This document shows, one piece after another, positions 16,660-53,700 of a DNA stretch of 64,000 nt. The notes under the pieces were generated by a model that saw only the letters and a program-made list of their open reading frames with translations, was not told where the DNA came from and made no database searches. A program made the position numbers and the translations under genes. Location: positions 123,380,001 through 123,444,000 of the forward strand of contig OX597814.1 of assembly GCA_951406725.2 (NCBI GenBank). Direction: 5' to 3'. Each line of letters starts with the position of its first letter. Positions within the stretch are counted from its first letter, which is position 1. The DNA comes from Octopus vulgaris (taxonomy: Eukaryota).

Positions 16660-17460
16660 TCTTCCATGACACTCAATATCTTGAGATCAGCCATCACTAC
16701 TTCATCCCATAATCTTCCTAGTCTCCTTCTTCTGCAGGTTCCACACACTTTAAGCAATCAGTGCCTCGTTATACAGCTGTCCTCAATTCTACATGTCACA
16801 TGACTAAACCATCGTAGTCTTCTCTCTTGCATGCTACATCTGATTCACCTTATGCCCAACTTTTCCATCAACACATTTACATTTTATTGCACATCCATAG
16901 GAGCATACTAGCTTCATTCCTCTCTAGTCTTCACATGTCCTCAGCATTCAGGACCCACATCTCACTTCCATGGAGCATGGCTGCTCATACACAAGCCTCA
17001 TACAATCTGCTATTCACTCTGAGAGAGGCATTTCATTACCAACTGAGGTAATAGTTCCCTGAACTTTCTGTATCCTATTTTCATTCTAGCAACTCTACTT
17101 TAGAAACATCCTCTTCCACTGCTAATTTGGCCACCTTGGTAACAAAAATTAATTACGACCTCTAGGGAGTCTCCTGAGCATTTGAGAAAATCTAATTTCT
17201 GTGTGTCTTATTCACATTCTTGCTAACTACAGCTTTGGTCTTAACTTGGAGGCACTTTGATTCCTCCATACCTGAAATTTCTTTTCCAGTTCAGCTACTG
17301 ATTTTGCTACAATATTAAGTTCATCAATATATGTAGTTGTTACCATGATCAGCCTGTCAGTTATGGCTTGGAGGGCTATGATGAATAAGAGGGGACTGAG
17401 AAACAAGCCCTGGCGAATTTCTACTTGTACACTAAGTTCACCATTGTACTCGTGGCAATA
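16660..17460 (-). mobile_element. Degenerate RTE-clade LINE fragment
   Basis: Same family as 43970-44490; RT motif B remnant near 17390-17420. Confidence 0.7.
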
Positions 17461-17676
17461 GCATATGTAAATATCTTCAGAACGGTCTTTGAAAGTAATT
17501 TTTAAATATTTGTGAAGTAGAACAGAAAGTTATATTATTTAGGTATGCATTACCATTGATTGAAGAAGGGTCTGAGCATTTTCCACCATTAACAAAACAT
17601 GCTCATAACATTATGAAAGGACTTAATAATACTTGTAAATTTATGGGCCGTGACTGTGGAGGACATGAGGATATAC

Positions 17677-26748: not shown

Positions 26749-28505
26749 CAGTAGCAGCCATAATATAGGACTCAGTAAGAACAAGTGTATGGAAATAGTT
26801 ATTATAGAAGATTAGTAACACGTGAAGACTAGATATTTTACACATATATTTAATATCTATCTTTTGTGAAAATTTCAAGTGAATGGAATAAATATTACAT
26901 AATTTATGAAGGAATAAACAAAAAATTTTCCAAATTGCAGCAGCCAAATGTTAAGGGTCACTTAGAAAAAAATGAACTACTAACTAAGGTATTTGTTGTT
27001 TAGAAGGCTAATAGTTACTTCTTATGATCTTACCATATTGGAACATTCAACTGTCAACATGGCAGCTTTTGAGAGATAACCAGTGTCCTGTGATGAAAAA
27101 CAAAGGATTGTGTGCCTTCACCAAGAAGGCAAGTCAAATTCTGTGATCGCAACTACTGTAGGAAGGTCTTGAAGTGTTGTGCAATGAACTGTAGCTGGTA
27201 TTAAGTCACCAAGATCAACAGATGTTAAAACCAAAACTGGTAGACCTCATAAAACATCATGACAGGATCGTATTATGGTTAGAATGTCACTGAAGGATAG
27301 GTTTAAGAGTGCAGCTGAGATATCCCACGATATATCACGCAGAACAGTTCCTCGGAGGTTACAAAGTTCTGGGTTGCTTGCTCAGGCACCGACAAAGAAA
27401 CCTCTGATCTCCAAGAAGAATCAAAGAGCCTGTCTTTGTTTAGCTCAGGAACATATCATTGGACAGAAGAACAGTGGTCGCAGGTTCATTTTAATGATTA
27501 GTTCCGATGGCGGGATGCACATCCGATGAAGAAGTGGTGAAAGGTTATCTCGAAGGAGTGGCTGTATGGTAAGTAGCTTGCTTACGAACCACATGGTTCT
27601 GGGTTCAGTCACACTGCGTGGCAATTTGGGCAAGTGTCTTCTACAATAGCCTCAGGCCAATCAAAGCCTTGTGAGTGGATTTGGTAGACGGAACTGAAAG
27701 AAGACCGTCATATATATGTATATGCATTTATATATATGTGTGTGTATATGTTTGTGTGTCTGTGTTTGTCCCTCCAACATCGCTTGACAACCAATGCTGG
27801 TGCGTTTATGTCTACGTATCTTAGTGGTTCAGCAAAAGAGACCGATAAAATAAGTACTAGGCTTACAAAGAATAAGTTCTAGGGTCAATTTGCTTGACTA
27901 AAAGCGGTGCTCCAGCATGGCCACAGTCAAATGACTGAAACAAGTAAAAGAGTATGTGTGAAGAAGACAGTGAAATAAGGAGGCAGCGTAATTGTATGGG
28001 GAGTGATCTCTGCTGCTGGTCCTATTCCACTTATTCGCCTACAAGGGACTGTCAATGCTGAAATTTACAGATTCTTAGATAGCATGCCTTTCCACATCTC
28101 CAATCCTCATCAGTTCAACCTCCTGTCTTCATGCAGGACAATGCTCCCTTTCACACTGCAAAGAGGGTCAAAGATTTTTTGAGTAAAGGGGTTGATCTCA
28201 TGGACTGGCCACCTCAAAGTCCCATCTCAACCCTATAGAAAATGTTTGGAAGATTATCGAAGATGGGGTACGAAGGAGAGATGCAAAGAACCAAGATGAA
28301 CTCTGGGAATTACTGAAAAATGAATGGAACAATATTACTCCATCATTTTGCAAGAAATTAATTCAGGCCATTGATAGTAAAGGGATCTTCATAAAATATT
28401 AATAATAAAGGTTTCTTTTCTGTTCATATTCCATTTTTCATTGTTTTTCTAAGTGACCCTTAACTTTTGGCTGTTGCAGTTTGGAAGATTGTTTATTCCT
28501 CATAA
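26749..28505 (+). mobile_element. Degenerate Tc1-like transposon interrupted by a family A SINE (27553-27953)
   Basis: Inverted repeats at ~26902-26976 and 28437-28505. Transposase remnants GRPHKTS, SRRTVPRRLQSSGL..PTKKPLISKKNQRACL, FMQDNAPFHTAK, MDWPPQSP..NPIENVW. Confidence 0.85.
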
Positions 28506-31785: not shown

Positions 31786-32796
31786 GTTTAACTGAATAAA
31801 TAGATCATAAAATACAAGAGAGGCCATTGACAAAAGTGAGGTTCCCCAACTGAGGTGGGGTCCACTCACTTCAAAAAAAAAAAAAGAAAAAATTCCAGGC
31901 ACGTCCAGGGAATCAATGGAAAATGTTGTTTGATGTTGGGTTTGTGGTTTTTTTTTTACCTTTTTATTTATTTATTTATTTTAATATTGATTTTTTTTTT
32001 TTTTTTTTTTTTTCAATTCTGAGATGGGACTGTGTTTAAGAATATACCATTCTCAGAACAGTGGTCTGAAGAAATAGGGTAATGTCCCGTTACTCAAACC
32101 CTGCAGAGTGTGTATGTGCACATATATATATATATATATCATCATATATATATATATATATAATTCAAATTTCAATTTAGGACATGTTTGGGGGTAAGGG
32201 ACAGTTTAGTGTCTTGCAGGTTTTTTGTTTAAGTTTTCTAGTCAAGATATATGGAAAATTATATTTTGTTCATTGAAAGTTTGTGCATATATATGTGTGT
32301 GTGTATTTATGTATGAAATACAAATGTTTAAAACAACCCTGCAAATGATAATAAAATTTATTTTTAATTATTAGCAAAATGCTTATTACAGTGTTAATGT
32401 TTTGTCTTGTCTTTTATTAATATAATAATAATATTATTATTATTTTTATTTATTATTATTATTATTATTAGTGATGGAGGTGTTATATGGAGTTAATGAA
32501 AACTCCAATGAGTGTTGTGTTTTTGGGTTCAATAACCATGAATTTTGATGAAAAATAAACCCCAGTCAACATGGCATGAAAAGTCAATTGATAGTTATAT
32601 TTTATTTGACGCCGTTAAATGTGGATGGCTATTTTTTAGTTTGTTTTGTTTTTTTTTTTTGCTTTTTTTTATTGTTATTTCATCTCCAATGATAGGAAAT
32701 AAATTTCAGTAAAATTTTTATTTTTGTTTTCAAAATTTTAGCACAAAAATAATTTGTTTTACCATATTTTCAATCAGTTTGTTATCCTTTTATGTG

Positions 32797-33050: not shown

Positions 33051-36000
33051 TCAAGCAATGAAGTCAGGGTCTTCATCGCTATCGCCGTCATCTTCACTGT
33101 CACTCAGACGACGACGTTTCTTGCGCACCTTCTTCTTAACAGGAGGTTTTGGAGTTAACTTGGGAGACGGTTTGATTTTCTTTTTCTTTTCAAGTAAAGA
33201 AGCGTAATGCTGATTACGAGGAGTGTGATGAAATGATGGTTGTTGCTGGCTTCGAGGTTTGATCCCATCAGAGCCATCTGAAACTTTATCAGAGACTTGC
33301 ATTTCAGTGGCGTCTTTAGACTCGACATGATTCTCAGCTCCTTCAGGTACCGAGCTCTTTGTATGTGGACTGGTTTTGACATTGTCGTCAGAGTCATCAT
33401 CATCTGGAGGGTCAATACTCAACATTAAATGTTTGAAATCAATGAATTCTTCAACCAATTTTCGTTTCTCTTCATCACTAATAACATCTGATGGCTTTTT
33501 CTTTAGTAACTCAATAGTTGAGCTTGGTTGAAAATCTATAGCATATTTCCTTGCCAAGGGCTTATCATAAACTTTAGCTGCTTCTGCCGGTGAATAACGA
33601 TGGACTTTCGTGTCGGTGAAACCATATAACTCTTTGAGATGCTGTTTCAGGACAAGAAGCAGGACACATCCTTGAGAGATGCGGCAAATCTCCTGCAGCG
33701 GCATCACGTTCTCAGGTAATCTTTCCATGATGCTTTCAATTTCTTCATCATCTTCATCATCAAATGTTTCCCCTTTCTTTCTATCAATATCCTTCCTTGG
33801 AAGAAGGCATTCTTTGAAAGACTGTAGCAGGTTAGAGCCAGACACTGAGACAATGATGTCTATTTGATGAATGATAAATAATGGTTCGTCTTGAGATTGG
33901 TAAGCGAAAAAGGCAAGGTTATCAGCTATATACAAGAGTTCTTCAAGTGATGCACGTGCCGAATCATCAAACAGATTCAGAAGGGAAGTGAGTAAAGCTC
34001 TTCGATAGGTTCGATTAGCTCGAAGAACTGTATAAAGGAATGCATTTAAACTAAGATGGACAGCATCCTGGGTCCTAAGGCCTCGAACTGGCTCTGAAGG
34101 ATCTTGAATGATACTTTGGAATTTATATGACATCTTTACACCTTGTAGAGCCTTCATATGAATGAACCCAGGATACTTCTTATCAATATCTTGAAGTTGT
34201 TGATCTGATCTCACCCTCACGCTTGGATCTATTTCTGTTCCCATTGTTATTAAATAGGGAACACACTGTACAGGGTGAATGAGACCCTGGCGAAGAACAA
34301 GCTGAATAATATCAAGAGCAGACTGTCGTACCTGGAAATTGGCACAAATGAAAGATTCAAGCACTTGTTTCAGGTACACCTGTATGATGGTGCTCGCCAT
34401 TCCTGACTGTAAATCTCCCATGTCTCGTAGATCTTCTGCTTTACATTGTTTTCTCCATTCAGCATCAGCTATGATCATCTTGGTTTCTTCTTCGACCAGA
34501 TAGCTGTGCAGATTTCGCAATGCTTGGATCTTCAGCTTTATAGATGCTTCACTGTTTGTAAAGAGATAATAATAGAGTCCTTTCAGTGTTTTTCCAAGCA
34601 TATATTCATAATGACGGACACACATGAAGCCAAGCCCAGTCAAAGCTTTTACACGCACTTCCTCGTCTTCGTGCTCAATAAAATAGTACAGAACATCAAA
34701 TACTCGGTCCTTTATCGGAACTTTTGCTTTTGTCTCTCCCATCTCCTTGGAATCAAAATCAAAATGACGGCACAAAAGGCCAACAGTGAAAAGTGACCGC
34801 AGCAATGTAGGTCTTCTCTTTTGAAGGGTTGGATTGTTAGAATTTTCTTTGTGGTCAGCCATCAACTTGGAAAGAACTCCAAAGAATTTCTGGAAACAAT
34901 CTTTAACAAGTCGATAATTATGACTGACATTATTAACAACGGCACCAAGGCAGCTGACACAGCTCTGTAAAACCATCATTCCATGTTTTAGAATCAACTT
35001 CATCATGTCTTCCTCGAGTTGTGCCAAAAACGTTTCACTCGGATGGTCCATAAGAGGCACCACCATCTCAAGAATACGTGCAACAAAATGCAGCACCATA
35101 ACGTCACCTTGTGTGTTACATCTGATATTTAAATATGGCTGAAGTGTTATTGCATGTTGAACCATGAGATCAGGTTTAATCTTGCTGAAAAGATGTAGTG
35201 TGGTCAAACATGCTATCAAACGCTGAGGATGAGAAGTATTATCACCATCCACTGACTTTTCTTCTAAGCTCATGACATTTTCAACAAGGCAGTTAACAAT
35301 TTGCTGAGAAGCCAACAAAGCACTCTTATTATAGTGACCGTCATCATCTTTTTTTAACAAATTTTCCAGTAAATGTTCAAAGAACTCCAAACCACTATCT
35401 TTACAGGCAGCAACAACTTCTGTAATATTCACAACACGTCTCAAAAGTCTGGAAGAGTCTTTCTCTCGTAAAGGACAAAACCACATCATTTGGAAAACCT
35501 CGTTGACTAGTTTTTTTATGCCTTCTTCATCGTTTACTCTGCGGATCATTTTCACACACATCTCAGGTATTTTGTTAAAATCAGGTTGTCCGAGGCAAAT
35601 GTCTTTGAAAATCTTTATCACTCTTTTTCTTACACTGATACCTGTATCGAGAATTCGATCACATAACATGTCGTAATATTTAGGGATCAATTCAGGTTTA
35701 ATCAGTATGAACTTTCCAACAAGTTCTACTGCCGCTTCTCGGACAGATGTCGATTGATCTAGAAATCTCCCATGCACTCCACGCTGCATATCATCACGCG
35801 CCAAAATTCCAGGGTCAGCTTCTACAACAGCTGTTAAACATTTCATAGCCTTTGTTCGTACTGCCACGGCTGTTTCACTGAGCACACGCAAAATTTGAGT
35901 TAGGTATATGTCAAAACTCTGAGCAAACGGTCTCTTAGAGCTGAGGTAGCGTGCTACAAGGCATGAATCTTCAGCATCTAATCTACACTGTAACTGTCTC

Positions 36001-39000
36001 ATGTTATTTGCTGGCTTGTTGGGGACTTCAATGATTGTCATTAAAAAGGTTTTCCCTTTCTCTGCAATCTCTAAGGTTTGGTTCACTTCTTCAGCCCTTT
36101 CATCTTCATCTTCTTCTTTTAGTTGTGAAACTTTCTTTTGTAATTTTTCTGCTTCAACAGTGAGATCCCGATACCACTGGGCAATATAAAACTGTCTCGC
36201 AAACAATAATGCTGGATCACTTTGTCCATTCTCAGCCAAATAATACAACATGGCCTTTTGTAAACTTTGTGTTTGCTTTATTTCATCAAGACTTTCCGTA
36301 TTGCCTTCTTTCTTAAAGTCGTTCTCTTCAGTTACTTCATTGTCTATTTTTGAAATAATTTCCTCGATCATTTCTGGGTTCGTCTGACTAGTGACGGCGT
36401 CACTGCGAAGACGAGCAGCAACTATGCCTAAATATTCTAATGAAGCAACCCTCAAAGACATATCTGTAGATTTATTGCTGAACTGCTGTACAAGAATTCT
36501 CCCAAGAAGACTAAGCAACAATTCTGAAGCTGGCCATTCTGGCTTGTTCACTGTAGATAGTAAATCCTGAACAAAGTTTTCAAAAAGGGGCCGATAGTCA
36601 TCTTCACTTTTGGCAGTACATTTCTTAAGAAAGACAGAGAGGAAGTTATAACCAGTTCTCATGGCTGTCTCGTATGATGTTACAATAATGACATCATCAT
36701 CTGCTTCCCTTTTTTTCTTCTCCAATGCTTTTTTATCTGCTACAGGTTTCTCATCAATACAAATTTCAGACTCAACAGATTTTGGTGAAGGCAATTTAAT
36801 GACACACTGGATCAACTGCAAGGCAAGTGCTGTCACCATTTGTATGGACTCGTCAGCATTTAGGCGATAGTTGCGGAGGTTCCGCTTGGTGGATGGTAGT
36901 CGAGCTAAAGAGGCAAAAATATCTTCCAAAATAAGTTGTCTGTGTTTATCATACTTACAAAAAATATTTGTTACCAACTTCATTGAATTTAACTGCATTT
37001 CACTAATGTTCTCAACAAAAAAGGGGGACACACTTAATGTAGACACTTGCAAAATGACTGTGTCTGTCAGTTCTTGAATGTGCAACAACTCACTCAGAGC
37101 CTTGATGAGCTCACAAAGTTTATTATATAAAGTTATTGTAGCTTTGTGCTTTACTGAGTGGGTACGAGCTCGTTTGGATTTCAGGTTACCTTGGTAACCT
37201 CCTTTTGCATGAGGATCTATTTTATATACAGGATCAAACTCTGGGTAAATTGTATTCTGAAGCTGCCACTTACCAAATAGAATGATTCTTTCAATAACAT
37301 CATCTAAATATACCTGCTTTGGCATTTCTGGAGCAGTGATTATGTAAAGAGCTGCTAGAGATGCATCCATACTCCTCATCACTCGCTCCATCATCATTTC
37401 TCTCCACATTACAGACTCTTCGTCATCTTCATCTTCGTCTTCTTCAGGTCTTATATTTGGTGCCAACTTCACACCATCTCGTACGTTCCACTGAAGTATT
37501 GTAAGTAACTTTACAAGTTTATCGGAGGGAATTTGATTCGTTACTTTCTGGGCTTTCAATTTTGCTGCCTCTCCACAAATTTCGGCAAGAACCTGTCTTG
37601 CAATAAGGGATTCTGGTGGACATTCTGTGTCATCATCGTTTGGATCAAGAGAACCAAAATCAATCTCCTCCGCACTATCAAATACGTACTCCACTGACTG
37701 AGCAAATTTTCTAAATGTTGGACTATCAAATAACTCCTCGGAACTTAATGCCCTCTGATTCATACGTTTGTGTCGCTTCCGACGTTTTTTCCGAGCTGAT
37801 TCGTCCATTTCCTCCTCTTCGTCACTTGAGTACAATCTTTTTGTACTTTTTATTTTTTTCATAGTGTCACAATCTGTCCTAATTCTTCCTCCAGAGACAA
37901 CAGACTGAAGTGTTTTGGCATCTAAAAGTTCTAACACCACAATAGGCTTAGAATTTTTAGCAACTAAAAGGTCAACTTGCTTACTAAAAGATATCTCTTC
38001 GACATCTTCTGGTTTGATTTGCCTTTGTTGTTGTTGCTGCTGCAGCAGATAATCCTCCTGTAGAACCATAGGGTAGGGGGGACACTGCTTTGCTTTATCT
38101 GTTTTCTCCGAAGACATGTTGCGTGTTCGTCGTTTACACAGCTCCATATCTGCCTCTACACAGGAAGAACTAGCAGTGGCTGTGAATGATGCAGGTAATC
38201 TGCTACTCTGGTGAAAATCTCCACTACAAGAGGCAGAATCTCCCTGTAGACCAAACTGCAACTGGTGCAGGGACATGTTATCTGATCCACTCTTCCTGCG
38301 ACCAGACATGTCCGGACAAATGTTCATACACTCAGGGGAAGGCTTGCTCTCGAAAGAGTCACTGCACTTCGGTCCTAAGGTAGATTTGGCACTACTGGTT
38401 CGCCTCTTACAGGAGTAAGCAGACCCTGCAGATTCAGGTGGAGATAATACATCTAAATTGATGTGTTCAGCCACTGCAGCCAGAGGGGGTGACACAGTAT
38501 TCTGATCAAATCTTTGATTTTGAGCAAAATGTTGAAACTGTTGTTGTTGCTGCTGCTGTTGATACAAATTTGGTGAAAGAAAATTAGCATGAGATGAATA
38601 TTGAGAGTTTGTTGGGTATCGTGGTGATGAATCTGACTGCATTTGTTGCAGCCTGGGAGAAACGTTATTCTGATTTAGATGATATGGCATGGTAAAATGA
38701 CCCGAATGGTATTGTGGAAGAGGTGTTTGCTGGCTTTGAATAAGTTCATGAGGGGGTTGTGGGTGAAGTAAGTGCTGCTGCTGCTGTTGCTGCCTGGTTT
38801 GAATGAAGTTTGCAGACTGCTGCTGCGATAGGTTCTGATGGGCTGTTCGACTGTCAAAACCTCGAACATCAAATCCACTGCCACTACTACTACTACTGCT
38901 ACTACTACTACTACTACTACTGGCAGTGGAAGTAGTTGTAGTAATGTTACCACCGACACCAGCAGTAGTGGTGGTAGCATTGTTAGTTTTAGTATGAAAA

Positions 39001-39374
39001 ACACTGGGGTTCTGTCGAAGAACCATTTTTAACAGATCAGGGATATCTCCTTCTATGGCATCACTCGCTAAACTGTCCTTTAATTCAATGTGATCTGTAG
39101 AAGTTTGTTTCAGAGCATGAGCAAGCTGCTGAGCTAGTGTTTCATCGTGAGTCTCAAGTATTTTTCGAGCGTCATCAGCAATTTTCGGATTAAAGAGGAG
39201 ACTTTTATTGTGCATAGCTGGGGAGAGAGGTGTTGGCAGGGGAAGCTCAGGCAGTAAGTCTGTAAGACTAGTTACTCCTGCCAATGTTATAATAGGAACA
39301 CTTGGAATTTCGCCGTTCATCATGCGATTCAATACATCGCTTCTGCTACATGCCACTACATCTTGAACAACCAT
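33051..39374 (-). CDS. NIPBL: Nipped-B-like cohesin loader (NIPBL/Scc2/delangin), single-exon CDS of 2107 aa (2089 aa from the conserved MNGE start at 39320)
   Basis: The N-terminus MNGEIPSVPIITLAGVTSLTDLLPELPLPTPL matches the metazoan NIPBL MAU2-binding N-terminus. HEAT-repeat core motifs are present (VRTKAMKCL, SVREAAVELVG, RILDTGISVRKRVIKI, QGLIHPVQCVPYLI), as are the Nipped-B_C region (YIADNLAFF..DEPLFIIHQIDIIVSVSGSNLLQSFKE) and a basic/acidic tail. The frame is open throughout and ends at TGA 33053-33051. Confidence 0.98.
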   Translation of the reverse strand: MVVQDVVACSRSDVLNRMMNGEIPSVPIITLAGVTSLTDLLPELPLPTPLSPAMHNKSLLFNPKIADDARKILETHDETLAQQLAHALKQTSTDHIELKDSLASDAIEGDIPDLLKMVLRQNPSVFHTKTNNATTTTAGVGGNITTTTSTASSSSSSSSSSSSSGSGFDVRGFDSRTAHQNLSQQQSANFIQTRQQQQQQHLLHPQPPHELIQSQQTPLPQYHSGHFTMPYHLNQNNVSPRLQQMQSDSSPRYPTNSQYSSHANFLSPNLYQQQQQQQQFQHFAQNQRFDQNTVSPPLAAVAEHINLDVLSPPESAGSAYSCKRRTSSAKSTLGPKCSDSFESKPSPECMNICPDMSGRRKSGSDNMSLHQLQFGLQGDSASCSGDFHQSSRLPASFTATASSSCVEADMELCKRRTRNMSSEKTDKAKQCPPYPMVLQEDYLLQQQQQQRQIKPEDVEEISFSKQVDLLVAKNSKPIVVLELLDAKTLQSVVSGGRIRTDCDTMKKIKSTKRLYSSDEEEEMDESARKKRRKRHKRMNQRALSSEELFDSPTFRKFAQSVEYVFDSAEEIDFGSLDPNDDDTECPPESLIARQVLAEICGEAAKLKAQKVTNQIPSDKLVKLLTILQWNVRDGVKLAPNIRPEEDEDEDDEESVMWREMMMERVMRSMDASLAALYIITAPEMPKQVYLDDVIERIILFGKWQLQNTIYPEFDPVYKIDPHAKGGYQGNLKSKRARTHSVKHKATITLYNKLCELIKALSELLHIQELTDTVILQVSTLSVSPFFVENISEMQLNSMKLVTNIFCKYDKHRQLILEDIFASLARLPSTKRNLRNYRLNADESIQMVTALALQLIQCVIKLPSPKSVESEICIDEKPVADKKALEKKKREADDDVIIVTSYETAMRTGYNFLSVFLKKCTAKSEDDYRPLFENFVQDLLSTVNKPEWPASELLLSLLGRILVQQFSNKSTDMSLRVASLEYLGIVAARLRSDAVTSQTNPEMIEEIISKIDNEVTEENDFKKEGNTESLDEIKQTQSLQKAMLYYLAENGQSDPALLFARQFYIAQWYRDLTVEAEKLQKKVSQLKEEDEDERAEEVNQTLEIAEKGKTFLMTIIEVPNKPANNMRQLQCRLDAEDSCLVARYLSSKRPFAQSFDIYLTQILRVLSETAVAVRTKAMKCLTAVVEADPGILARDDMQRGVHGRFLDQSTSVREAAVELVGKFILIKPELIPKYYDMLCDRILDTGISVRKRVIKIFKDICLGQPDFNKIPEMCVKMIRRVNDEEGIKKLVNEVFQMMWFCPLREKDSSRLLRRVVNITEVVAACKDSGLEFFEHLLENLLKKDDDGHYNKSALLASQQIVNCLVENVMSLEEKSVDGDNTSHPQRLIACLTTLHLFSKIKPDLMVQHAITLQPYLNIRCNTQGDVMVLHFVARILEMVVPLMDHPSETFLAQLEEDMMKLILKHGMMVLQSCVSCLGAVVNNVSHNYRLVKDCFQKFFGVLSKLMADHKENSNNPTLQKRRPTLLRSLFTVGLLCRHFDFDSKEMGETKAKVPIKDRVFDVLYYFIEHEDEEVRVKALTGLGFMCVRHYEYMLGKTLKGLYYYLFTNSEASIKLKIQALRNLHSYLVEEETKMIIADAEWRKQCKAEDLRDMGDLQSGMASTIIQVYLKQVLESFICANFQVRQSALDIIQLVLRQGLIHPVQCVPYLITMGTEIDPSVRVRSDQQLQDIDKKYPGFIHMKALQGVKMSYKFQSIIQDPSEPVRGLRTQDAVHLSLNAFLYTVLRANRTYRRALLTSLLNLFDDSARASLEELLYIADNLAFFAYQSQDEPLFIIHQIDIIVSVSGSNLLQSFKECLLPRKDIDRKKGETFDDEDDEEIESIMERLPENVMPLQEICRISQGCVLLLVLKQHLKELYGFTDTKVHRYSPAEAAKVYDKPLARKYAIDFQPSSTIELLKKKPSDVISDEEKRKLVEEFIDFKHLMLSIDPPDDDDSDDNVKTSPHTKSSVPEGAENHVESKDATEMQVSDKVSDGSDGIKPRSQQQPSFHHTPRNQHYASLLEKKKKIKPSPKLTPKPPVKKKVRKKRRRLSDSEDDGDSDEDPDFIA

Positions 39375-39961
39375 CTTTTAGTATTCCTGCTATGGTAATT
39401 CCATCAAATTGGTCCCCAAAATTGTCATTTAAAACACAAACGCAACTGCTGACACTGCCCAAAAACTGGTTCTTCGTTAATGGCATAAAGACAATTTTCA
39501 CTCACTGAGCTTTTGAAAAAATTCTGTTGAAAGTATTGTTGTACTTGGCACTTCACTGATTTTTGACAGTTTAAAACTTGTCATCAATATATACAACTGA
39601 TTGGCTGGAGTTCAATTTTTGTTTGGAGAGCGGTAGAGAGTTTTAATGTTTCTGCTTTGTTTTTCGATTAAAATAAATCAGAATCAGAAATGAAAAATAA
39701 GGAAGCTTCAGAATAATTCTAGCCAAATTTCTGTTACTTGGAAGTATGAAAGTTTGATAAAAACATGTGTGATATTTATTCAACGTTTGTTAAAGAGTTC
39801 AGACAAGAATTTCGTTCAGAGAATCTTCCTTAAAGCAATCTCCTGAGCAACGATTTAAAAAGTAAAGGATTTAAAGAGTACAAACTATTTTACTAAACTC
39901 TTTATCAATGATATTTTCGTCCTGGTGTGTTTCCATAATTATCTTTAAAAATAAGTGTAAG

Positions 39962-40930
39962 CTGGAGGTAGATAAGAGAAAACAGGAAAGTAGGAATTGA
40001 TTACAACACAAACGGGATTCAAAACAAACCCGATGTCAATGTCGCTGGAGGTTGCAGGTTCAATCCTGTTATGGTTATATCAAAAATGTAGAAATGCCTA
40101 ATCCTTTAGTATAACTTTGATCGGCCGGGGACGTTAACAATAGTAAATTTACTGCTGATATTCCGTGTCCGAGTGAGAAACTATAAAAACCATCATCTCC
40201 GACTGTGGTCTTACTTCCGGTTTAAGGTCAGCTGAAGCAACTTAATCAGTTCTTAATTATATTTAGTCAGTTTCTTATTTCGGGACGTTTATTTATTTAT
40301 TTAATGCTGCTACTACAACTTCTAGTGGTGATGGTGGTGACAGTGATAGGTGAATTTGACTTAGTCCGTGATTAAGTGAGATCGATTTCAAGACACGTTA
40401 TATCCGAATGGAATAAGAACGGAACTGACATATAAACATTAATCTCTCCTCACAACTTTAGGAGATATAATAAACTATAAAACACGTTGGTAGAGAATAA
40501 AAAACGAGGATGATACAGATAAAATGTCTTCAAAAATGAGAGGAAATTGTTATTTGAAAAGAGAGATCAGGGTATCCCGGCATAAGTCTTTGATAGGACG
40601 TATGTTACATACTTGTAAATATCAATTCAACTGAGAACGATGGGAAGGAGGAAGGGGGATTGCACTGTTGAGTATTTTAGATGTTTATATATAATATATA
40701 TACGTGTGCGTGTGTATATGGATTTGGTATGTGGAAACGGAGAAGATAATCAGTGTTTCGATTCTGGAGGTCGTAGTGGTCGATTGTAATATTCCTAGTG
40801 CGATTAAACTACATTGGTCGGTTTGTAGCGTTTTCTTTTAAACAGAAGATCAAATAATGTCGGTGGATAGAAGCAAAACAGAGTGTCAGGAGAAAAAGAC
40901 AACAATTATTGAGAAATGAGAAAACATTAC
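39962..40930 (-). other. Candidate intron in the NIPBL 5' UTR
   Basis: Minus-strand donor CAG|GTAATG at 40931/40930. Acceptor with a long polypyrimidine tract CTTTCCTGTTTTCTCTTATCTACCTCCAG| ending at 39962. Confidence 0.55.
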
Positions 40931-41639
40931 CTGAGGTCTGTAGCGACAGTTTTTGTTTGTTTTGTTTTTTTTTCTATTGTGTTTGTTGTTAATGAAGAAG
41001 TAATAAGTGGCGATGTGTTTGTTTTCGTTCACATCCTCTTCGTTTCATAAACAAACACACACACACACATATACGCTCACACACACAGTCACATTTATAG
41101 ACTCACAGCCATGTTCACACACACACGCATACACCGAAGCACTCACACACACACACTCTCACTTCTGGCTTTCACATACACAATATGGCGTCGTGGTGGC
41201 GGTGTTGGACAATTAAAGAAGAGTTACTGTTTTTAACTTCTTTGCTCTGTTGTGTTTGGATGTTCCACTTCTGCAGACTTATAAATAAAGAATCTTTTGA
41301 TAGATATCAATACAGTTTGCAATGAAAACAATAGATTAGACAAATATTCTCCTTGCTCAGTCTTTTCACTATATTCAGTGTTGATCTGTATAAGAGTGTG
41401 TGACACCCTACCAGGTTTTACGGCCTCCACCAAACTCCAAACAATAACAGCAACAACAAACAGACATCAAATAGAATAGTTCAGGTTTTAAATCAATAAT
41501 CAGTCCACATTGTTCCTGTCTAATTCTTCTCATCATCGTTTCGTTAACGTTTCTTCTTCCTCGTTTTTTGATGTTTTCTTCAAAACTAATGTTGTTAGAA
41601 TCGCCTATTTTCTGGACTTTGTCCGGGTTCTTCACTTAT

Positions 41640-41990
41640 TATTTCCATTCCTGTAGAGAAAGTAAACATCCAGGAGTTGGTTGTGTGGTAGGGCTGCAGA
41701 GATGGGACGAGCGTTAATTAAAAGATAATGAGAAGATAAAAAGAGCGAGTCGGGTAGGAGAGACGGTGAGCAGCCATTGTTGACGGTAAGTGGAGAGGTA
41801 GAGACAAGGGAGGTAACTAACTCACAGGTGCGCCGTCGAGCTTTGTAGCATGTGCTCTATGGAGATAAGGACAGAGTTTCTCTTCACAACAATAACATCT
41901 AAGATCCCTCTGTGACAGTTGTTGAGTCTGCTCAAGAAGGATATTAAAGAACTGTCGAAACGAAAACCTTCCTAAAAAATTTCACTAGCA
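41640..41990 (-). promoter_or_regulatory. Putative NIPBL promoter / transcription-start region
   Basis: Locally CpG-retaining and repeat-free, pyrimidine-rich on the minus strand. It has a GCCAT (YY1-like) core at ~41773 and lies just before the first upstream SINE at ~42085. Confidence 0.4.
41651..41825 (-). other. Candidate short first intron in the NIPBL 5' UTR
   Basis: Minus-strand donor CCT|GTGAGT at 41826/41825 and acceptor TTTACTTTCTCTACAG|G at 41651/41650. Confidence 0.35.
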
Positions 41991-43969: not shown

Positions 43970-44490
43970 GGCACTTACACTCTGTCAAGTATGCACACTG
44001 ACATTACACATCCAGCAGAGCATACTGGCTTCATTCCTTGCAAGCTTACGCATGTCCTCAGCAGTCACGGCCCATGTTTCACTGCCATGTAACATGGCTG
44101 TTCATACACATGCATCATACAGTATACCTTTTACTCTTAGCACGAGGCCCTTTGTCACCAGCAGAGGTAAGAGCTCTCTGAACTTTGCCCAGGCTATTCT
44201 TACTCGAGCAGTTACACTTTCAGTACACCCACCCCAGCTACTGACTTGGTCACCTAGATAATGGAAGCTATCAACTACTTCTAGTTTTTCTCCCTGGAAT
44301 GTGGCGGAAGTTGTTCTCTGCACATTTTCAGTGCTTACTGTTCCTGAGCATCTGCCACATACAAAAACTATCTTCCTAGTTAGCCTTCCTTTGATATTGC
44401 TGCACCTCTTATGTGTCCATAGCTTACACTGGGTACATCTTATAAAGCTTCTACCTACGCCTTTTCTACAGATCGAGCAGGGCCATCTAC
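43970..44490 (-). mobile_element. RTE-clade LINE fragment
   Basis: LEVVDSFHYLGDQVSSWGGCTESVTARVRIAWAKFRELLPLL (post-RT YLG region). Confidence 0.85.
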
Positions 44491-46211
44491 CTGAAGGGGT
44501 TTGTGGTTTGTCTGTGTTTGTGATATATATATATATATAAACGTATATATATTAACGTTGTTTACAAGGTAGAAGTAACACAATAGGACCCAAATAGACA
44601 ACCAAGCATGTGGAAATATATGGAGGCAAAGGAAGGCCCCTTCAGAACCCATTTTAATAAACCACAAGTCCTCCTTCAACATCTCAGAGAGACATAACAC
44701 CACAACCATACCATGGAGTACAGATAAAATGGAAGATCCTGGAAAGATGCAAACCATACGTCAATAGCAACAGGAAGTGCAGATTATACCTGTCTGAGAA
44801 GAGAGCAATTTTAAAAGGTACCCAACACCCAGATGTTTACCTGAATAGCAAGAGTGAGGTGTTTAATCCTAGCCCACATGAAAGGAAGTACAATGTATTG
44901 TAGCTATGCACTCCACCATGACTGCAATCATGGGTCCCCTGCCTCGACCTTCCACCAAGCCCTCAGACCCAGAAAAAAGAGATTGACCAAAGCCCATACC
45001 AATGCACCCATGTACACACACACAAGCCTATAAGATGGACATTCAACAAAATAAACTGTCTCCCACCACCCCAACACATACCCATTCACACAAATTGTAC
45101 GCCCACATATACACAGATTTCCCACACATACATTACACATCACACTTACATACCCCCTCCACCAACCAACAAACACAGCTATATATACCTACATCACCAA
45201 TAAAATTATACATACTAGCAGAGATAACTGCCGTTGCCCGTGTTACAAGCAATTAAAGAATTAGACTTTTCTGTTATATTTTCTGTAATGAACTGGAATA
45301 CTTATGATTTGAATTTCATCAAAATTGCACATGAGGGTTCTTTCTGTCTTCACACACCCTAAAAAAATTCTAATTATGACACATGTATCCCATACTACTC
45401 ATCTTTATGCACAGATTCCAAAATTCCAGTCTTATGGAACCTGTTAAAAGGATTTTTGTTCCTGAAAAATGGAATTTCAGGGAGCTCCAAACTGTGGGAG
45501 TTAAGGCCCCTATTGGGGGTGGGTGTCTTAATGTAAACCAGAGAAGTTGAATTGTTGAGAATACATATATGTATTGTTCGAATTTCTTTGAAATAGGAAA
45601 TATATGTATGTTCACTGGGTTTGTAAAAGAGAGTAAAGCTACAGGAACCAAAAGATGAATGAGCAGAATAAGCAGTCAGCTACCCTAACCTACTCGTTAC
45701 TACTCCCCAATGTAGGATTCCTCACCATATAGGTGACAGGCACAGCCATAAGATGCATTACAGATCTATAGCAATTTGAAGGGCATGACCCAACTCAAAC
45801 ATTAACAACTGTGTGATGTGAGGGCTAAGGGGAAATGAAAGTGTCACTTCTGGAGTTTGTAAATGAACACTATACTGATAGGTAACTGGACAGAATAAAT
45901 TTACAATCTATAAATGTCTTTCAATAACCAGTCACTAATCTGGAAAGGCCTTGAAATCAATGTTGCCATCTGGGGACATTGTGTGACCCAGTGATAATAA
46001 AAAGACTCAAAGGAGATCTGCAATCAAATAACTTTACTCAACACTTTGCAACTGAATCAGTGGAGGCAAAGATGCCTCTCATTTACTTGACAATTTATGC
46101 ACCACATTGCAGAAATCATAATCAAAGTATATCTCAAAGCAAACTCTCACACTGTTGTACCATTGAATTACAAATAATGCTCATCTTTTATGCTTGGGTG
46201 ACCCTACAGCT

Positions 46212-46605
46212 TCCAAGAGTACCATATTCTGAGCGCCTTGTTTCCCTGGGCATGGATTCACTGAAGCTCCGGCGTCTAGCGACGGACTTGGTAAACACCC
46301 ACAAGGTTATCAACCACCTCACCAACAACAACACTGAACACCTTTTTGATCTCCATGTGTCTAACACACGTGGACATGCCTACAAAGTCAGAAAACAGCA
46401 CAGCTCCCATGACTTTCGGAAACATTTTTTCACGCTCAGGGTTGCTGAAGCGTGGAATAAACTGCCTGCATCAGTTGTTGACTGCCATGACACTGCATCC
46501 TTTAAGGCCCTCATGCTTCCCGAAATCCGTCGAAACTACACCTGATTATATATACACTTTAGATGAGTTGTAGTGCACCTGAGCACTGTACACAATTATT
46601 ATTAT
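46212..46605 (+). mobile_element. CR1/L2-like LINE 3' fragment
   Basis: PYSERLVSLGMDSLKLRRLATDL...TRGHAYKV...FFTLRVAEAWNKLP. Confidence 0.88.
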
Positions 46606-50025: not shown

Positions 50026-50781
50026 TATGTATACATATGTAAATGTTATATATACAAACACTGAGGCTATTGCTCTCTCCTTCAGCACAAACCATCATTT
50101 TGTATTACTGTTATTCTTGAATATTTTCATTCTTTAAAGCGCAATTAAAACTTTGCTGGTTTGTACATAGAAATTAGCTTGCTTATGAACCACATGGTTC
50201 CGGGTTCAGTCCCACTGAATGGCACCTTGGGCAAGTGTCTTCTACTATAGCCTCGGGTCAACCAAAGCCTTGTGAGTGGATTTGGTAGACAGAAACTGAA
50301 AGAAACCCGTCATATATATGTATATGTGTGTGTGTGTGTGTGTTTTGTCCCCCCCAACATCGCTTGACAACCGATGCTGGTGTGTTTATGTCCCCATAAC
50401 TTAGTGGTTCAACAAAGAGACCGATAGAATAAGTACTAAGCTTACAGAGAATAAGTCCTAGGGTCAATTTGCTTGACTAAAGGCAGTGCTCCAGCATGGC
50501 CACAATCGAATTACTGAAACAAGTAAAAGAGTAATTAGTATGAAAGTTAAATTTAAGTAGAGTTTAATGAGAAAGATTCAATAAAAAAATAATGTTTGAT
50601 GCTGTCAAATTATATCAGGAATTAGATTGAAATGCTAGCAAGAAATTAAACAAAAATAAATTGAATGCAGCATAGAACAAAACACCACCAGGACAAAATC
50701 CCAACTTTTGAAATGTAAAGCAAGACAAAAATTCCCTTGGCTAAAGAAAAAGAAAGCAAAAAAGCATGAGTAAAATTTCCA

Positions 50782-53700
50782 ATTAACCATCTTACTAACA
50801 CTAACTCTGAGCACCTTTTCAAACTCCACCTGTCTAACACCCGTGGACATGTTTACAAAGGCAGTAAACAGCACAGCTCCCATGACTTTGGGAAAATGTT
50901 TCCGAAAGTCATGTGAGCTGTGCTGTTTTCTGACTTTGTAAACATGTCCGCATGTGTTAGACAGGTGGAGTTTGAAAAGGTGCTCAGAGTTATTGTTAGT
51001 AAGATGGTTAATAATTTTATGGGTGTCTACCAAGTCAGCTGGCAGACGTCGGAGTTTCAATGTATCCAATCCCAGGGACATAAGGCGTTCAGGATATGGC
51101 AAATGCCTGATGGAGGGTATTCTCTTGGTTGCACGTCACTGAAAGGTTTCCAGACGATTAATATCCTGGTCAAGATAGGGGTTCCAGACTGGTGATGCAA
51201 ATTCCAGGTGAGACTGCACCATAGCTATATAAAGCCTCAGATAGATAGCTGGAGAGTGGCTCAAAAAGGACTTGGTAAGTGATGCCAAGACACCCTCAGC
51301 CATCTTGGCAATTTTAGCAATGTGTTTTGTCCAATGCAAATTGCTGTCGACAATAATGCCCAGGTCACGTTCACAAGAGGACTTTTTGAGATTAGTGTTG
51401 TGGAGGGAGTAAACAGATGCTGATTTTTCCTCCCAAAAGGCATGGTGATACATTTGTCTACAGCCAGCTTGAGTTGCCAGTCCATGATCCACTGCTGCAT
51501 TGTGTCCAGGTCCGATTGCAATAAAGATCTATAGTGTACAGGATCTGTCCAGCTTGATGTCATCTGCATATTTCAGCACTGCGGAATTCTTTAAGTTGGC
51601 ATCTATGTCATTAACATATGCAACAAATAAAAGGGGGCCAAGAACAGATCCCTGTGGTACACCAGATGTCATCTCATAGGGGGAAGAGTGCTGTCCTAGA
51701 ACTGTGACAACTTCTTTTCGGCCGATAATGAAGGACTTCAACTAGTTATAGAGATCATCTCTTACACCCATTGCAGAGAGTTTCACCATAAGTCATTTGT
51801 GTGGCACAGAATTAAAAGCCTTAGCAAAGTCCAGGTAAACAACATCCACCCAGGAGCCGCCATCAGTGATTCGGGTAATGTCCTCAAGAAACTCGATGAG
51901 TTGATTACAGCAGCTGGAGAATAAATCCAAATTGTGACAGCTGGATGAAGCTGTGAGACTTCCAGAAGTTCCAGAGGGTTTCTCTGACACAGGATTCCAT
52001 CAGTTTGGTGATGCAGCTTGTAAGACTAATGGGGCAATAGTTGACAGGCGATGTGCAGTCACCTTTTTTGAACAGAGGGATAACACTGGCAGTTTTCCAC
52101 TGCTCTGGAGTAACACCATTGTCAAGACAGAATTGAAAGAATAGTGAAAGTTAGTTTAGAAGAAAGTACCCACCGTGTTTGAGAAGTAGGTATGTAACAC
52201 CATCGAAACCAGGAGAGGCATAGTTATGTTTATTCTTAATGTGGCATTGTAGCATTGCTGGTGTAAATTTCATAGTAGTTATAAAGTCTGGTGTCAGAGG
52301 TGATGGAGAGGGAACATTTTGATCTTCGACAGTAAAAATGCCTGCATAGCATCCAGCAATGATTTCTGCACATTCTTTGGGATTGTCAGTAATCTGGCCT
52401 GTGTGGGGATTGTGAAGGGGACCAATGGGAGAGTGAGGTCTCTGCTTTGAATGTACATACTTCCAGAACACTTTGCTGTCAGGGTTGGTTGCTATGTGTT
52501 GTTCGAATTCAAGCACTGCCTTTTTTGTCACCTGCTTGAGATGGTTGGCTGACCTATTGCACTTTTTCCTGTTGATCTCTGATTTGTGCAATTTGTATTC
52601 CTTTCAGCATTATGGCATTCTTTCCTGGCATGTTGGACTGCTGCAGTCTCCAAAATTGCACTATTGGGTGGTTTTTTTGTGCTTGCATGGTACTGATGCT
52701 GCACATGCCATCCATATTGAATTCAGAATGTTCTGAAGTATAGTGTTCACATCTCCAGAGGAATAAAATTTGAGCCAGTTTGGGTGTTGTAGCTCGGTAC
52801 AATAAGAGTTCCAGTCTGCTTTATTCCAGTCGAAGTGGGCAGTTTGAAGATGGTTGTGGTTTTTGTTACAACCAATCAGAGACAAGTCGGCCATGATCAT
52901 GGAATGATCAGAGTCACCTAAAGGTTCTTCAGTAGTGACACTAATAATTGTTTCAGGAGAAGCAGTAAATAGCAGATCCAAAGTGTTGTTACCCCTTGTA
53001 GGGGTGGTAACGACTTGAGACCAATTTGAATTCAGCACCAGGTCAAGGACATCATCTGCACTTTGCGGCCAATGGAAGGCCTCCCAGTCAATCTCAGGGA
53101 AATTGAAGTCCCCCGCAATATAAACATAAGTGGCTGTTTTCATAGCAGCAACTCTGAGGATATCAAAAAGTTGTCTTGATGAAAATTTGGGGGGTGGTAA
53201 ATAACTCCAAGTAGAAGTGTTGACATGATCATGTGTATATTGCAGAAAAATACTTCCTGATGAGATCAGTTCAATCCTCACAAGAAATTGCCGATAGATT
53301 TGAACAAATGTAGACCATCACACCCCTACCACGGTGATTAATGCGGTCTTTGCAGAACAGGTTGTAGCCAGTTATGCTGAAAACCCTATCACAGGGTGCA
53401 GAATGTGCCCATGTTTCCGTGACTGTGATAAAATCTGGGTCAATATTTTTGATGTAAGAGTCAAAAAGATGCACCTTGTTGTATAAACTACAGGCATTCA
53501 AGGACAACAGTTTGTATCTGGATTTCAGATGATGATGATATACAGGGGATGGCTGATTGTTCTTGTTTAGTTTCCAATGATTTTTGTATTGCCAGTTATT
53601 GTGGGTGCAGTTGCTCAGACCAACTGATATCCCTTATCCACAACTCACTAGACTTGATGAATTTCCATATTTTCCCAACCTCGCATAGGCTAAAGCTTTC

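Follow-up and report, generated by a model that had tools for sequence, protein, structure and literature searches.

We found that the analysed window, a stretch of 64,000 nucleotides of the Octopus vulgaris genome (contig OX597814.1), contains an intact and intronless second NIPBL gene, retained as a paralogue of a parent gene that is itself intact and carries 48 introns. We consider it likely that the copy descends from a full-length mRNA retroposed before octopods and decapodiforms separated, and that it is a working cohesin loader. A first-pass annotation had described an uninterrupted NIPBL frame running from the N terminus to the acidic tail, and the description holds: a single minus-strand frame reads 2,107 codons from ATG to TAG with no internal stop, and the runner-up among the 27 ORFs of at least 100 aa in the window is an ATG-started frame of 160 aa. 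The parts of the gene are the following:

33051..39374, minus strand: intronless NIPBL paralogue in one coding exon, 2,107 aa (ATG-to-TAG frame, Pfam and structure-chain matches)
38991..39374, minus strand: conserved N-terminal segment, aa 1-128 (identity counts and alignment)
37800..38990, minus strand: low-complexity, fast-evolving linker with poly-S, poly-T and poly-Q runs, aa 129-525 (identity counts)
33405..37799, minus strand: HEAT-repeat core with predicted DNA-binding basic patches, aa 526-1990 (matches to 6wg3_E and 7w1m_E)
35718..35843, minus strand: Cohesin_HEAT domain, aa 1178-1219 (Pfam)
33852..34397, minus strand: Nipped-B_C domain, aa 1660-1841 (Pfam)
33054..33404, minus strand: acidic/basic C-terminal tail, aa 1991-2107 (translation and sequence comparison)

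Pfam membership was judged against curated cut-offs, which both domains exceed: Nipped-B_C with E 8.5e-51 and 173 bits versus a cut-off of 26.4, and Cohesin_HEAT with E 2.2e-13 and 50.7 bits versus 21. The human NIPBL chain 6wg3_E matches aa 525-2037 with 1,685 bits, and the structure chains of Mis4 and Scc2, together with 7w1m_E, also match the HEAT core. At the other end of the protein, aa 19-128 can be aligned to molluscan, amphioxus, and mammalian NIPBL N termini; we take this segment to correspond to the region of NIPBL that binds MAU2/Scc4 in other species. Over aa 1-128, the identity is 124/128 to Argonauta, 97/116 to the paralogue on chromosome C4, and 63/109 to hedgehog NIPBL; over the HEAT core, it is 1351/1464 (92%), 1105/1450, and 785/1418, respectively, and the linker retains 343/395 identical residues in Argonauta and 123/343 (36%) in the C4 paralogue. 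Judged by these matches, the frame encodes a complete NIPBL.

Three regional searches of the octopus's own genome, with N-terminal, central, and C-terminal pieces, gave the copy count that the first-pass annotation had called for: there are two NIPBL loci, the window copy on chromosome C1 and, unlinked to it, the other on C4. The C4 gene spans 166 kb and has at least 49 coding exons, with GT-AG boundaries in 48/48 introns; its model is an open frame of 2,096 codons with no internal stop and a terminal TGA, and its five N-terminal exons are backed by tblastn or by alignment. Every one of these 48 coding introns is absent from the window copy, as expected of a coding sequence that had been called intronless, and 42 of the 48 junctions are gap-free within three codons on either side, the remaining six lying in gapped alignment. 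The copy had been thought either to have replaced the ancestral NIPBL locus or to be a retained second paralogue. It is the latter, since the intact spliced gene on C4 rules out replacement. The two proteins are 69% identical, and a search of the 193 kb preceding the first exon of the parent model did not find the 12 N-terminal residues of the window copy. Comparison with other animals points to intron-bearing NIPBL as the ancestral state, because junction 48 is common to Sepia, where two Logan single-exon frames of the parent-type gene (P0125 and P0126) run into an intron at that point, and junction 46 to two frames from unrelated animals (P0190 and P0191), which terminate exactly there; these are the two junctions at which the comparison was possible. 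Intronlessness as the original condition of the gene, which would have removed the novelty of the copy, is thus not what we found.

The tree comprised 19 proteins and 1,587 columns, which remained of 32 rows after removal of the Logan rows that were unnamed and not from cephalopods, a near-duplicate of P0004, and several outgroups, with the C4 parent entered without its five N-terminal exons. The window protein groups with molluscan NIPBL, and the pair formed by the window copy and Argonauta joins Sepia CAE1303158 and Logan P0004, as opposed to the C4 parent and Sepia CAE1178724, with every cephalopod node at 100/100. Sepia carries both paralogues, CAE1303158.1 being of the window type and CAE1178724.1 of the parent type, and the Argonauta orthologue of the window copy (GAB1597401.1) is annotated on a 138-Mb sequence. 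A duplication restricted to octopods was rejected by a topology test in which forcing the window copy, Argonauta, and C4 together was 345 log-likelihood units worse (p-AU 4.2e-7). By this topology, the duplication predates the octopod-decapodiform split, dated to ~275 Mya in PMC9068888. The lineage-specific change suggested by the first-pass annotation stands only in part: the second gene does not appear in the gastropod and bivalve matches, where 26/26 named species are represented once among the best 120, but it is not a peculiarity of octopus, being common to octopods and decapodiforms. Nautilus was absent among the matches listed in the homologue search, a search with the Sepia parent-type protein returned no additional cephalopod protein, a shorter-protein search gave one decapodiform piece among 26 matches, and nothing was retrieved when decapodiform genomic DNA of the orthologue was sought in metagenomes.

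The substitution pattern indicates that the window copy is under strong purifying selection, as had been proposed from its intact frame. In the core, pN between the window copy and C4 is 0.149 (dN 0.17) and pS is 0.79, a saturated value, and the NG86 dS is undefined through saturation. Fourfold sites differ in 65% of cases (n=361), with a Tajima-Nei distance of 1.9 and a lower bound of 1.4, which together with the dN of 0.17 give a pairwise dN/dS of ~0.09-0.12. Near-invariant columns are retained at 421/437 in the window copy and 422/437 in the C4 parent. The predicted DNA-binding patches H1-H5 of NIPBL, taken from a table in PMC11970657, were mapped via hedgehog NIPBL with a self-calibrated offset (35/38 basic); the basic residues amount to 12/13 in H2, 9/13 in H1, 3/4 in H3, 5/5 in H4, and 1/3 in H5, and the counts are identical across all six cephalopod NIPBL proteins. 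The 12/13 lysines or arginines of predicted patch H2 are likewise found in abalone, scallop, and the C4 parent.

The copy is likely transcribed. In 13 runs from five studies, labelled as RNA by a guess and all in the form of contigs (36-119 million letters, versus a genome of 2.8 Gb), 97-99% of the words of the window ORF are present. Coverage was examined at the ORF start and upstream of it; in 3/3 of these runs placed on the window, the first 445 coding bases have zero differences and the coverage reaches 40945 without a joint. Two features flank the coding exon:

39375..41785, minus strand: likely transcribed upstream leader/promoter region (coverage by contigs guessed to be RNA; end from record lengths)
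32357..32722, minus strand: candidate poly(A) signal cluster, 330-690 bases behind the stop (AATAAA/ATTAAA scan)

The leader region has 28 upstream ATGs versus 40 expected from composition, and the CpG observed/expected ratio is 1.1 at 40001-41000. Its end at ~41,769-41,785 derives solely from contig record lengths, by which the contigs guessed to be RNA stop near 41.77-41.79 kb and one guessed to be DNA extends to ~42.9 kb. An apparent 2.4-kb leader with 28 ATGs and no splice joint is hard to reconcile with efficient translation, unless the mature transcript has a shorter or spliced 5' end. The contig ends could alternatively be due to a putative divergent gene on the plus strand, with its start near 41.2 kb and a donor site at 41787; no coding exon of such a gene was found. 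A strict YY1-type consensus is not matched by the site at 41770-41782, located at the inferred 5' end; matches to this type of motif at 41182 (plus strand) and 41115 (minus strand) are weak leads only. Behind the stop, there is an A-rich run after the AATAAA at 32673, of a kind common in the region.

The mobile elements in the neighbourhood are decayed, as the first-pass annotation had noticed: a domain scan covering 150/188 filtered window frames found RT/endonuclease fragments at 17.2-17.5 kb and 51.5-53.3 kb and a Tc1-like remnant at 27.3-28.4 kb, all of them broken. A PHD finger at 44105-44551 belongs to a high-copy element, and its 34,399 candidates in the genome rule it out as a host exon. 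When Pfam was run on 445/483 filtered frames of the window plus 50 kb on each side, the search for a host gene around the copy returned only mobile-element pieces, a SQSTM1-like gene, and weak matches, at a resolution from which small exons would escape. The SQSTM1-like gene terminates ~1 kb before the window start.

Regarding the origin of the copy, we propose that a LINE reverse transcriptase, an enzyme whose fragments are abundant in the octopus genome, copied a spliced full-length NIPBL mRNA, that the product was reinserted elsewhere, and that the retrocopy then acquired its own upstream promoter. We infer that it has been intronless ever since the duplication. It seems unlikely that the gene was instead duplicated at the DNA level together with its introns, before octopods and decapodiforms split, and that the copy lost all of them later in octopods, whether through recombination with a cDNA of its own or because a second retroposed copy took its place. 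The tree dates the duplication and not the intron loss, and the model of the Sepia orthologue (CAE1303158) lacks the true N terminus and rejoins homologous sequence at parent intron 5, just where the Sepia parent model does, a pattern for which either an intron or an assembly error could be responsible. However, this course requires two events, and retroposition one. The cluster of the Sepia orthologue has a single member and no exon-sized frame, whereas 2/4 members of the Sepia parent cluster are exon-sized. Logan P0166 (211 aa), identical to the Sepia orthologue, spans junctions 46-48, and two full-length decapodiform frames each lie on a single contig, although in both cases the source may be RNA. 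Neither were signs of a shared genomic neighbourhood seen: the one neighbour tested, the SQSTM1-like gene, has no match on C4. Inherited UTRs were rejected as well, neither flank of the ORF resembling those of the C4 parent beyond simple repeats.

A retroposed copy of this kind would give the cell a second NIPBL protein. We propose that it acts as such, with an N terminus that binds MAU2 and a body that clamps DNA on the cohesin heads and drives loading and loop extrusion, because the relevant residues are equally kept in both paralogues. Both copies would then have been kept by sharing the job through expression (dose, tissue, or timing), not through new chemistry. A transcription unit of ~9 kb can be completed far sooner than one of more than 166 kb, which would be an advantage in cells that divide fast or must respond rapidly, an idea that we find about evenly poised. 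Since the duplication, the copy lineage has accumulated 0.24-0.26 changes per column and the parent lineage 0.20-0.24, a difference so slight that these branches give no sign of new function. It is doubtful, in our opinion, that the paralogues diverged in biochemistry or partners (STAG/MAU2 contacts, or loop extrusion versus cohesion) beyond their expression. At 83 core columns, the four orthologues are set apart from the two parent-type proteins, the linker is poorly conserved between the paralogues, and derived residues of the copy's clade cluster in two runs, aa 608-610 and aa 725-733; the second adjoins predicted patch H1, which according to PMC11970657 STAG1 covers in the gripping state. 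With four versus two sequences, however, shared ancestry by itself would produce such columns; derived states are divided 30 versus 38 between the clades, basic patch counts are equal in both paralogues, and domain searches for MAU2, RAD21, and STAG found one exon-split locus each (lower bounds), with no duplicated partner evident. On sequence grounds, the copy is likely an old, functional retrogene with conventional-looking biochemistry.

The chance that cDNA or foreign DNA was put into the chromosome during assembly is negligible, even though a flag marks each of the four DNA-labelled runs with ORF words as a potential assembly source, and 4/4 runs placed lack one base at two upstream sites outside the ORF, pointing to small assembly errors. 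A protein only 69% identical to that of the C4 gene is not C4 cDNA, which disposes of the contamination considered in the first-pass annotation; a contig guessed to be DNA and labelled as a second organism runs unbroken through the ORF start and 1.57 kb of the upstream flank, the Argonauta orthologue sits on its long annotated sequence, and the genome-sized run X19, not flagged as an assembly source, contains 97% of the ORF words. Equally remote is a young processed pseudogene yet to decay, also raised there, for which the processed structure amid mobile-element debris might speak but which is refuted by the age and constraint of the copy, that is, by synonymous saturation versus the parent, the existence of Argonauta and decapodiform orthologues, and the near-invariant columns kept. 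As a separate observation, the contig of the second organism has 0 differences in 445 ORF bases and 5 private ones in 1,571 upstream, too few to count.

Human NIPBL has 47 exons, and the gene is dose-sensitive and usually single-copy. The window copy has in common with animal NIPBL/Nipped-B/Scc2 (human 6WG3 chain E) the N-terminal segment, the HEAT core, PF12765 plus PF12830, and the predicted DNA-gripping patch, but it has one coding exon where its parent has at least 49, and it is a second full-length gene that arose without whole-genome duplication. Two full-length paralogues have also been long kept as teleost nipbla/nipblb and as spider NIPBL pairs; among the best 120 matches, Nephila pilipes and Argiope bruennichi have two entries each and fishes carry A/B names. 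Those duplicates are attributed to whole-genome duplication and retain their introns. In contrast, the octopus copy is intronless, and cephalopods had no such duplication according to PMC9068888. The amphioxus SYCP1 retrogene, as presented in PMC5803294, is likewise a large chromosome-structure gene with one coding exon and a newly gained 5' region, but its parent is lost and its exon measures ~3.2 kb, whereas in octopus the parent survives intact beside an exon of 6.3 kb. According to PMC5470649, retrogenes at large show the same intron loss, new location, and recruitment of a new regulatory region (newly evolved in 86% and bidirectional in 11% in mouse/human), although at the age of the octopus copy neither a poly(A) remnant nor a target-site duplication is recognisable, and the latter would not be expected to last so long.

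In the literature, screened by title and the start of the abstract, we found no description of the gene, its paralogy, or its retro origin; both copies may be included in the gene-family tables of published cephalopod genomes. The proteins were already deposited under automatic names (GAB1597401.1, CAE1303158.1, and CAE1178724.1), and the new part, not found in print, is the paralogy and the retro origin. The coleoid Micro-C paper PMC13652810 discusses loop extrusion, with Nipped-B absent from its main text and "cohesin" present in its references only.

It is unusual for a full-length 6.3-kb processed copy to persist next to its parent over ~275 million years or more, as this one would have done, and the gene in question encodes the rate-limiting factor of chromatin looping in a group, the coleoids, with a 3D genome that is being actively investigated. 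The link that the first-pass annotation had drawn with the rearranged coleoid genomes amounts to a coincidence in time only. We would advance only tentatively the broader picture of two loaders, born by retroposition in a coleoid ancestor near the time of chromosomal rearrangement and now serving different cells or tasks (e.g., postmitotic neurons or germ line versus cycling cells, or loop extrusion versus cohesion). Loader knock-down and expression studies in octopus, squid, and cuttlefish must reckon with two genes. If tasks are indeed split between them, cephalopods would represent a natural division of NIPBL functions outside whole-genome duplication, bearing on their distinctive 3D genome.

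The intronless NIPBL copy is a single long frame on the minus strand (33051-39374), with 2,107 codons and no stop. Its protein contains the Pfam domains Nipped-B_C and Cohesin_HEAT, both far over their cut-offs, and its top relative among solved structures is human NIPBL (6wg3_E, 1,685 bits). These data bear out the uninterrupted NIPBL frame described in the first-pass annotation, and by each sequence feature examined the copy belongs to the family of this cohesin loader. Among the 120 best full-length matches, the nearest named protein is "nipped-B-like protein A" of Argonauta hians (92% across the HEAT-repeat core). The copy shares with Argonauta and with the decapodiform orthologue an N-terminal extension (aa 1-18, window 39321-39374) that is missing from the aligned abalone, scallop and mammal proteins; the final six residues of this extension are present in the first modelled exon of the parent.

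Searches of the octopus genome with a central piece, the N-terminus and the C-terminus gave two loci each time, the copy (contig C1) and exon-sized matches on contig C4, the parent. Proteins were aligned to the C4 region with a purpose-written spliced aligner, and spurious short N-terminal exons were removed. In the resulting model, 49 coding exons span 166 kb (C4 112,043,507-112,209,959), all 48 introns have GT-AG borders, and the stop-free coding sequence of 2,096 codons has a TGA terminus. Since the first 12 residues of the copy had no match in the 193 kb further upstream, translation of the parent may begin from the second methionine, or the gene may possess an extra exon. The first-pass annotation had proposed either replacement of the ancestral locus or a retained second paralog; with an intact spliced parent on C4, only the latter stands. 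All 48 parental introns are absent from the copy, in which 42 exon junctions align gap-free and six fall in gapped low-complexity stretches. At junction 48, single-exon Sepia frames continue into the intron, and at junction 46 two frames from unrelated animals end; at these two junctions the intron-bearing state is the old one, contrary to an ancestral intronless gene. The coding sequence of the copy has a CpG o/e of 0.54 (parent, 0.36) and a GC3 of 0.35 (parent, 0.29), and the higher CpG o/e may stem from lower gene-body methylation in this copy.

Among the 120 best full-length matches, Sepia (Acanthosepion) pharaonis has two NIPBL proteins, one of which groups with a protein from Logan, and 26 named species of gastropods and bivalves are each represented once; a second homologue search gained no further cephalopod NIPBL. 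The maximum-likelihood tree of 19 proteins places ((copy, Argonauta), (Sepia CAE1303158, Logan P0004)) as sister to (C4 parent, Sepia CAE1178724), with support of 100/100 for all these groupings and gastropods and bivalves outside. The duplicate is common to octopods and decapodiforms, and an octopod-only duplication was rejected (p-AU 4.2e-7). The public Sepia SCC2 models (P0003 and P0005) both have wrong N-termini, and one real exon is read out of frame in the parent-type model. Cephalopods and gastropods split ~530 Mya, and Nautilus and coleoids 400-420 Mya. Branch lengths scaled between the former date and the octopus-decapodiform split put the duplication very roughly at 375 Mya, near the Nautilus-coleoid split; in this tree without a Nautilus sequence, it may be coleoid or cephalopod-wide. 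PMC9068888 gives ~275 Mya for the octopus-decapodiform split and describes cephalopods as lacking a whole-genome duplication. Measured from the duplication, branch lengths to the tips total 0.24-0.26 in the clade of the copy and 0.20-0.24 in that of the parent. Pfam domain searches for MAU2, RAD21 and STAG gave one exon-split locus each (lower bounds); the duplication of the loader thus does not seem to have included these partners. In the tube worm Ridgeia piscesae, at least 10 separate gene models have the NIPBL C-terminal part only (P0168, P0169, P0177, P0178, P0181, P0182, P0187, P0188, P0192, P0194), which may be haplotypes left unresolved or a 3' fragment that a mobile element has moved.

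Copy and parent share 69% identity across 2,033 aligned residues and 77% in the core, where pN is 0.149 (dN 0.17) and pS is 0.79, past the Jukes-Cantor limit. At fourfold sites 65% of 361 differ (Tajima-Nei distance 1.9, lower bound 1.4), and this distance together with the core dN gives a pairwise dN/dS of ~0.1, an average over both lineages. The copy itself is constrained, as its sequence shares 1351 of 1464 core residues with Argonauta and keeps 421 of the 437 columns near-invariant in 30 other animals (parent, 422). The purifying selection suggested earlier is therefore upheld, and the copy is both old and constrained, not a young pseudogene. A table in PMC11970657 predicts DNA-binding patches of human NIPBL, and these were mapped via hedgehog NIPBL with a self-calibrating offset (35/38 basic at offset 8, no other offset giving more than 10). 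In the predicted gripping-state patch H2, 12 of 13 positions are basic, a count shared by both paralogues, their four cephalopod relatives, abalone and scallop; according to PMC8563363, DNA binding and loop extrusion require a NIPBL basic patch. Judged on these residues, the protein most likely acts as an ordinary loader. Divergence of the paralogues in their partners, which would be favored by the 83 columns separating the two clades, some adjoining predicted patch H1, is possible but unsupported.

By those features able to survive such age, the copy is a retrogene. The loss of 48 of 48 introns requires one cDNA-mediated event, and in the simplest history this event is the duplication itself, in which LINE reverse transcriptase would have copied a full-length NIPBL mRNA into another chromosome; LINE-type elements are abundant in the genome. 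A duplication of DNA with later intron loss in octopods is the less likely history, of modest probability; in its favor, the Sepia orthologue model breaks at a parental exon junction. After retroposition, the preferred origin, the new copy would have acquired its own promoter, as most retrogenes do (PMC5470649). A short transcription unit, finished faster than one of 166 kb, would be a possible reason for keeping it. The long retention of both copies would be best explained by work shared by expression or dose; NIPBL is dose-sensitive.

The surroundings of the copy contain the following features:

L049:9468-9689, L047:3219-3455 and L046:8946-9143 (loci near the window), plus strand: SQSTM1/p62-like gene (PB1, ZZ, UBA), ending ~1 kb before the window
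G000:C1:123573411-123573551, minus strand: second UBA of the SQSTM1/p62-like kind, 51% identical to the first and ~194 kb away
Window 44105-44551, minus strand: PHD-finger frame of a very high-copy young element
Window 50635-53317 (minus), 46072-46545 (plus), 17230-17529 (minus) and 27263-28399 (plus): fragmented LINE sequences (endonuclease/reverse transcriptase) and the remnant of a Tc1-like transposase

The second, similar UBA on the opposite strand places the copy between two convergent p62-like genes. The PHD-finger element has 34,399 candidates, and the 150 scored were 79-100% identical, some in frames of >1,000 aa. The broken LINE pieces and transposase remnant agree with the decayed neighboring elements reported previously.

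Sampled words of the copy were at least 97% present in 19 of the 24 sequencing runs listed: 13 guessed as RNA (five studies, 36-119 million letters), four guessed as DNA, all flagged as possible assembly sources, and two unlabelled, one of them genome-sized. Reads were aligned over window 38930-40945 for three RNA-guess runs, each from a different study, and for a DNA-guess run that carries a second organism label. All four covered all 30 bins with no joint and had no differences in the 445 coding bases. One base is missing in all four at 39792 and 40185, and all have G at 40653; at these places upstream of the ORF the assembly is probably in error. At 40200-40229, a 705-base contig of one RNA-guess run branches off with no canonical splice site, and its other sequence had no match in the window or the other loci compared. 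Judging from record lengths, three RNA-guess contigs end at ~41,769, 41,782 and 41,785, adjoining a CpG-rich kilobase (40001-41000, o/e 1.1), and the DNA-guess contig reaches ~42,927, weakly suggesting that a transcript boundary lies near 41,769-41,785. The apparent leader, of 2.4 kb with 28 ATGs, is puzzling. The 5' end of the mature mRNA may be spliced or extend less far, or the contigs may be lengthened by a plus-strand transcript that overlaps the leader. The first exon of such a transcript (41160-41790, plus strand) could be delimited by a YY1-type motif at 41182 and a strong donor at 41787; no coding exon was found downstream of it.

Two NIPBLs are also known in teleosts and spiders, where the pairs are attributed to genome doubling. 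By mechanism, amphioxus SYCP1 (PMC5803294) comes closest; its parent was lost, unlike the C4 parent. A literature search outside subscription journals and supplements found no published account of a cephalopod NIPBL duplicate, and the main text of a coleoid 3D-genome paper (PMC13652810) makes no mention of Nipped-B; the duplicate is apparently undescribed, and the proteins are already in public annotations under automatic names. The copy is a real, ancient and intronless cohesin-loader paralogue that is likely functional. The route to it is familiar and its protein looks conventional; the finding would be of high interest if the paralogues split the tasks of the loader.
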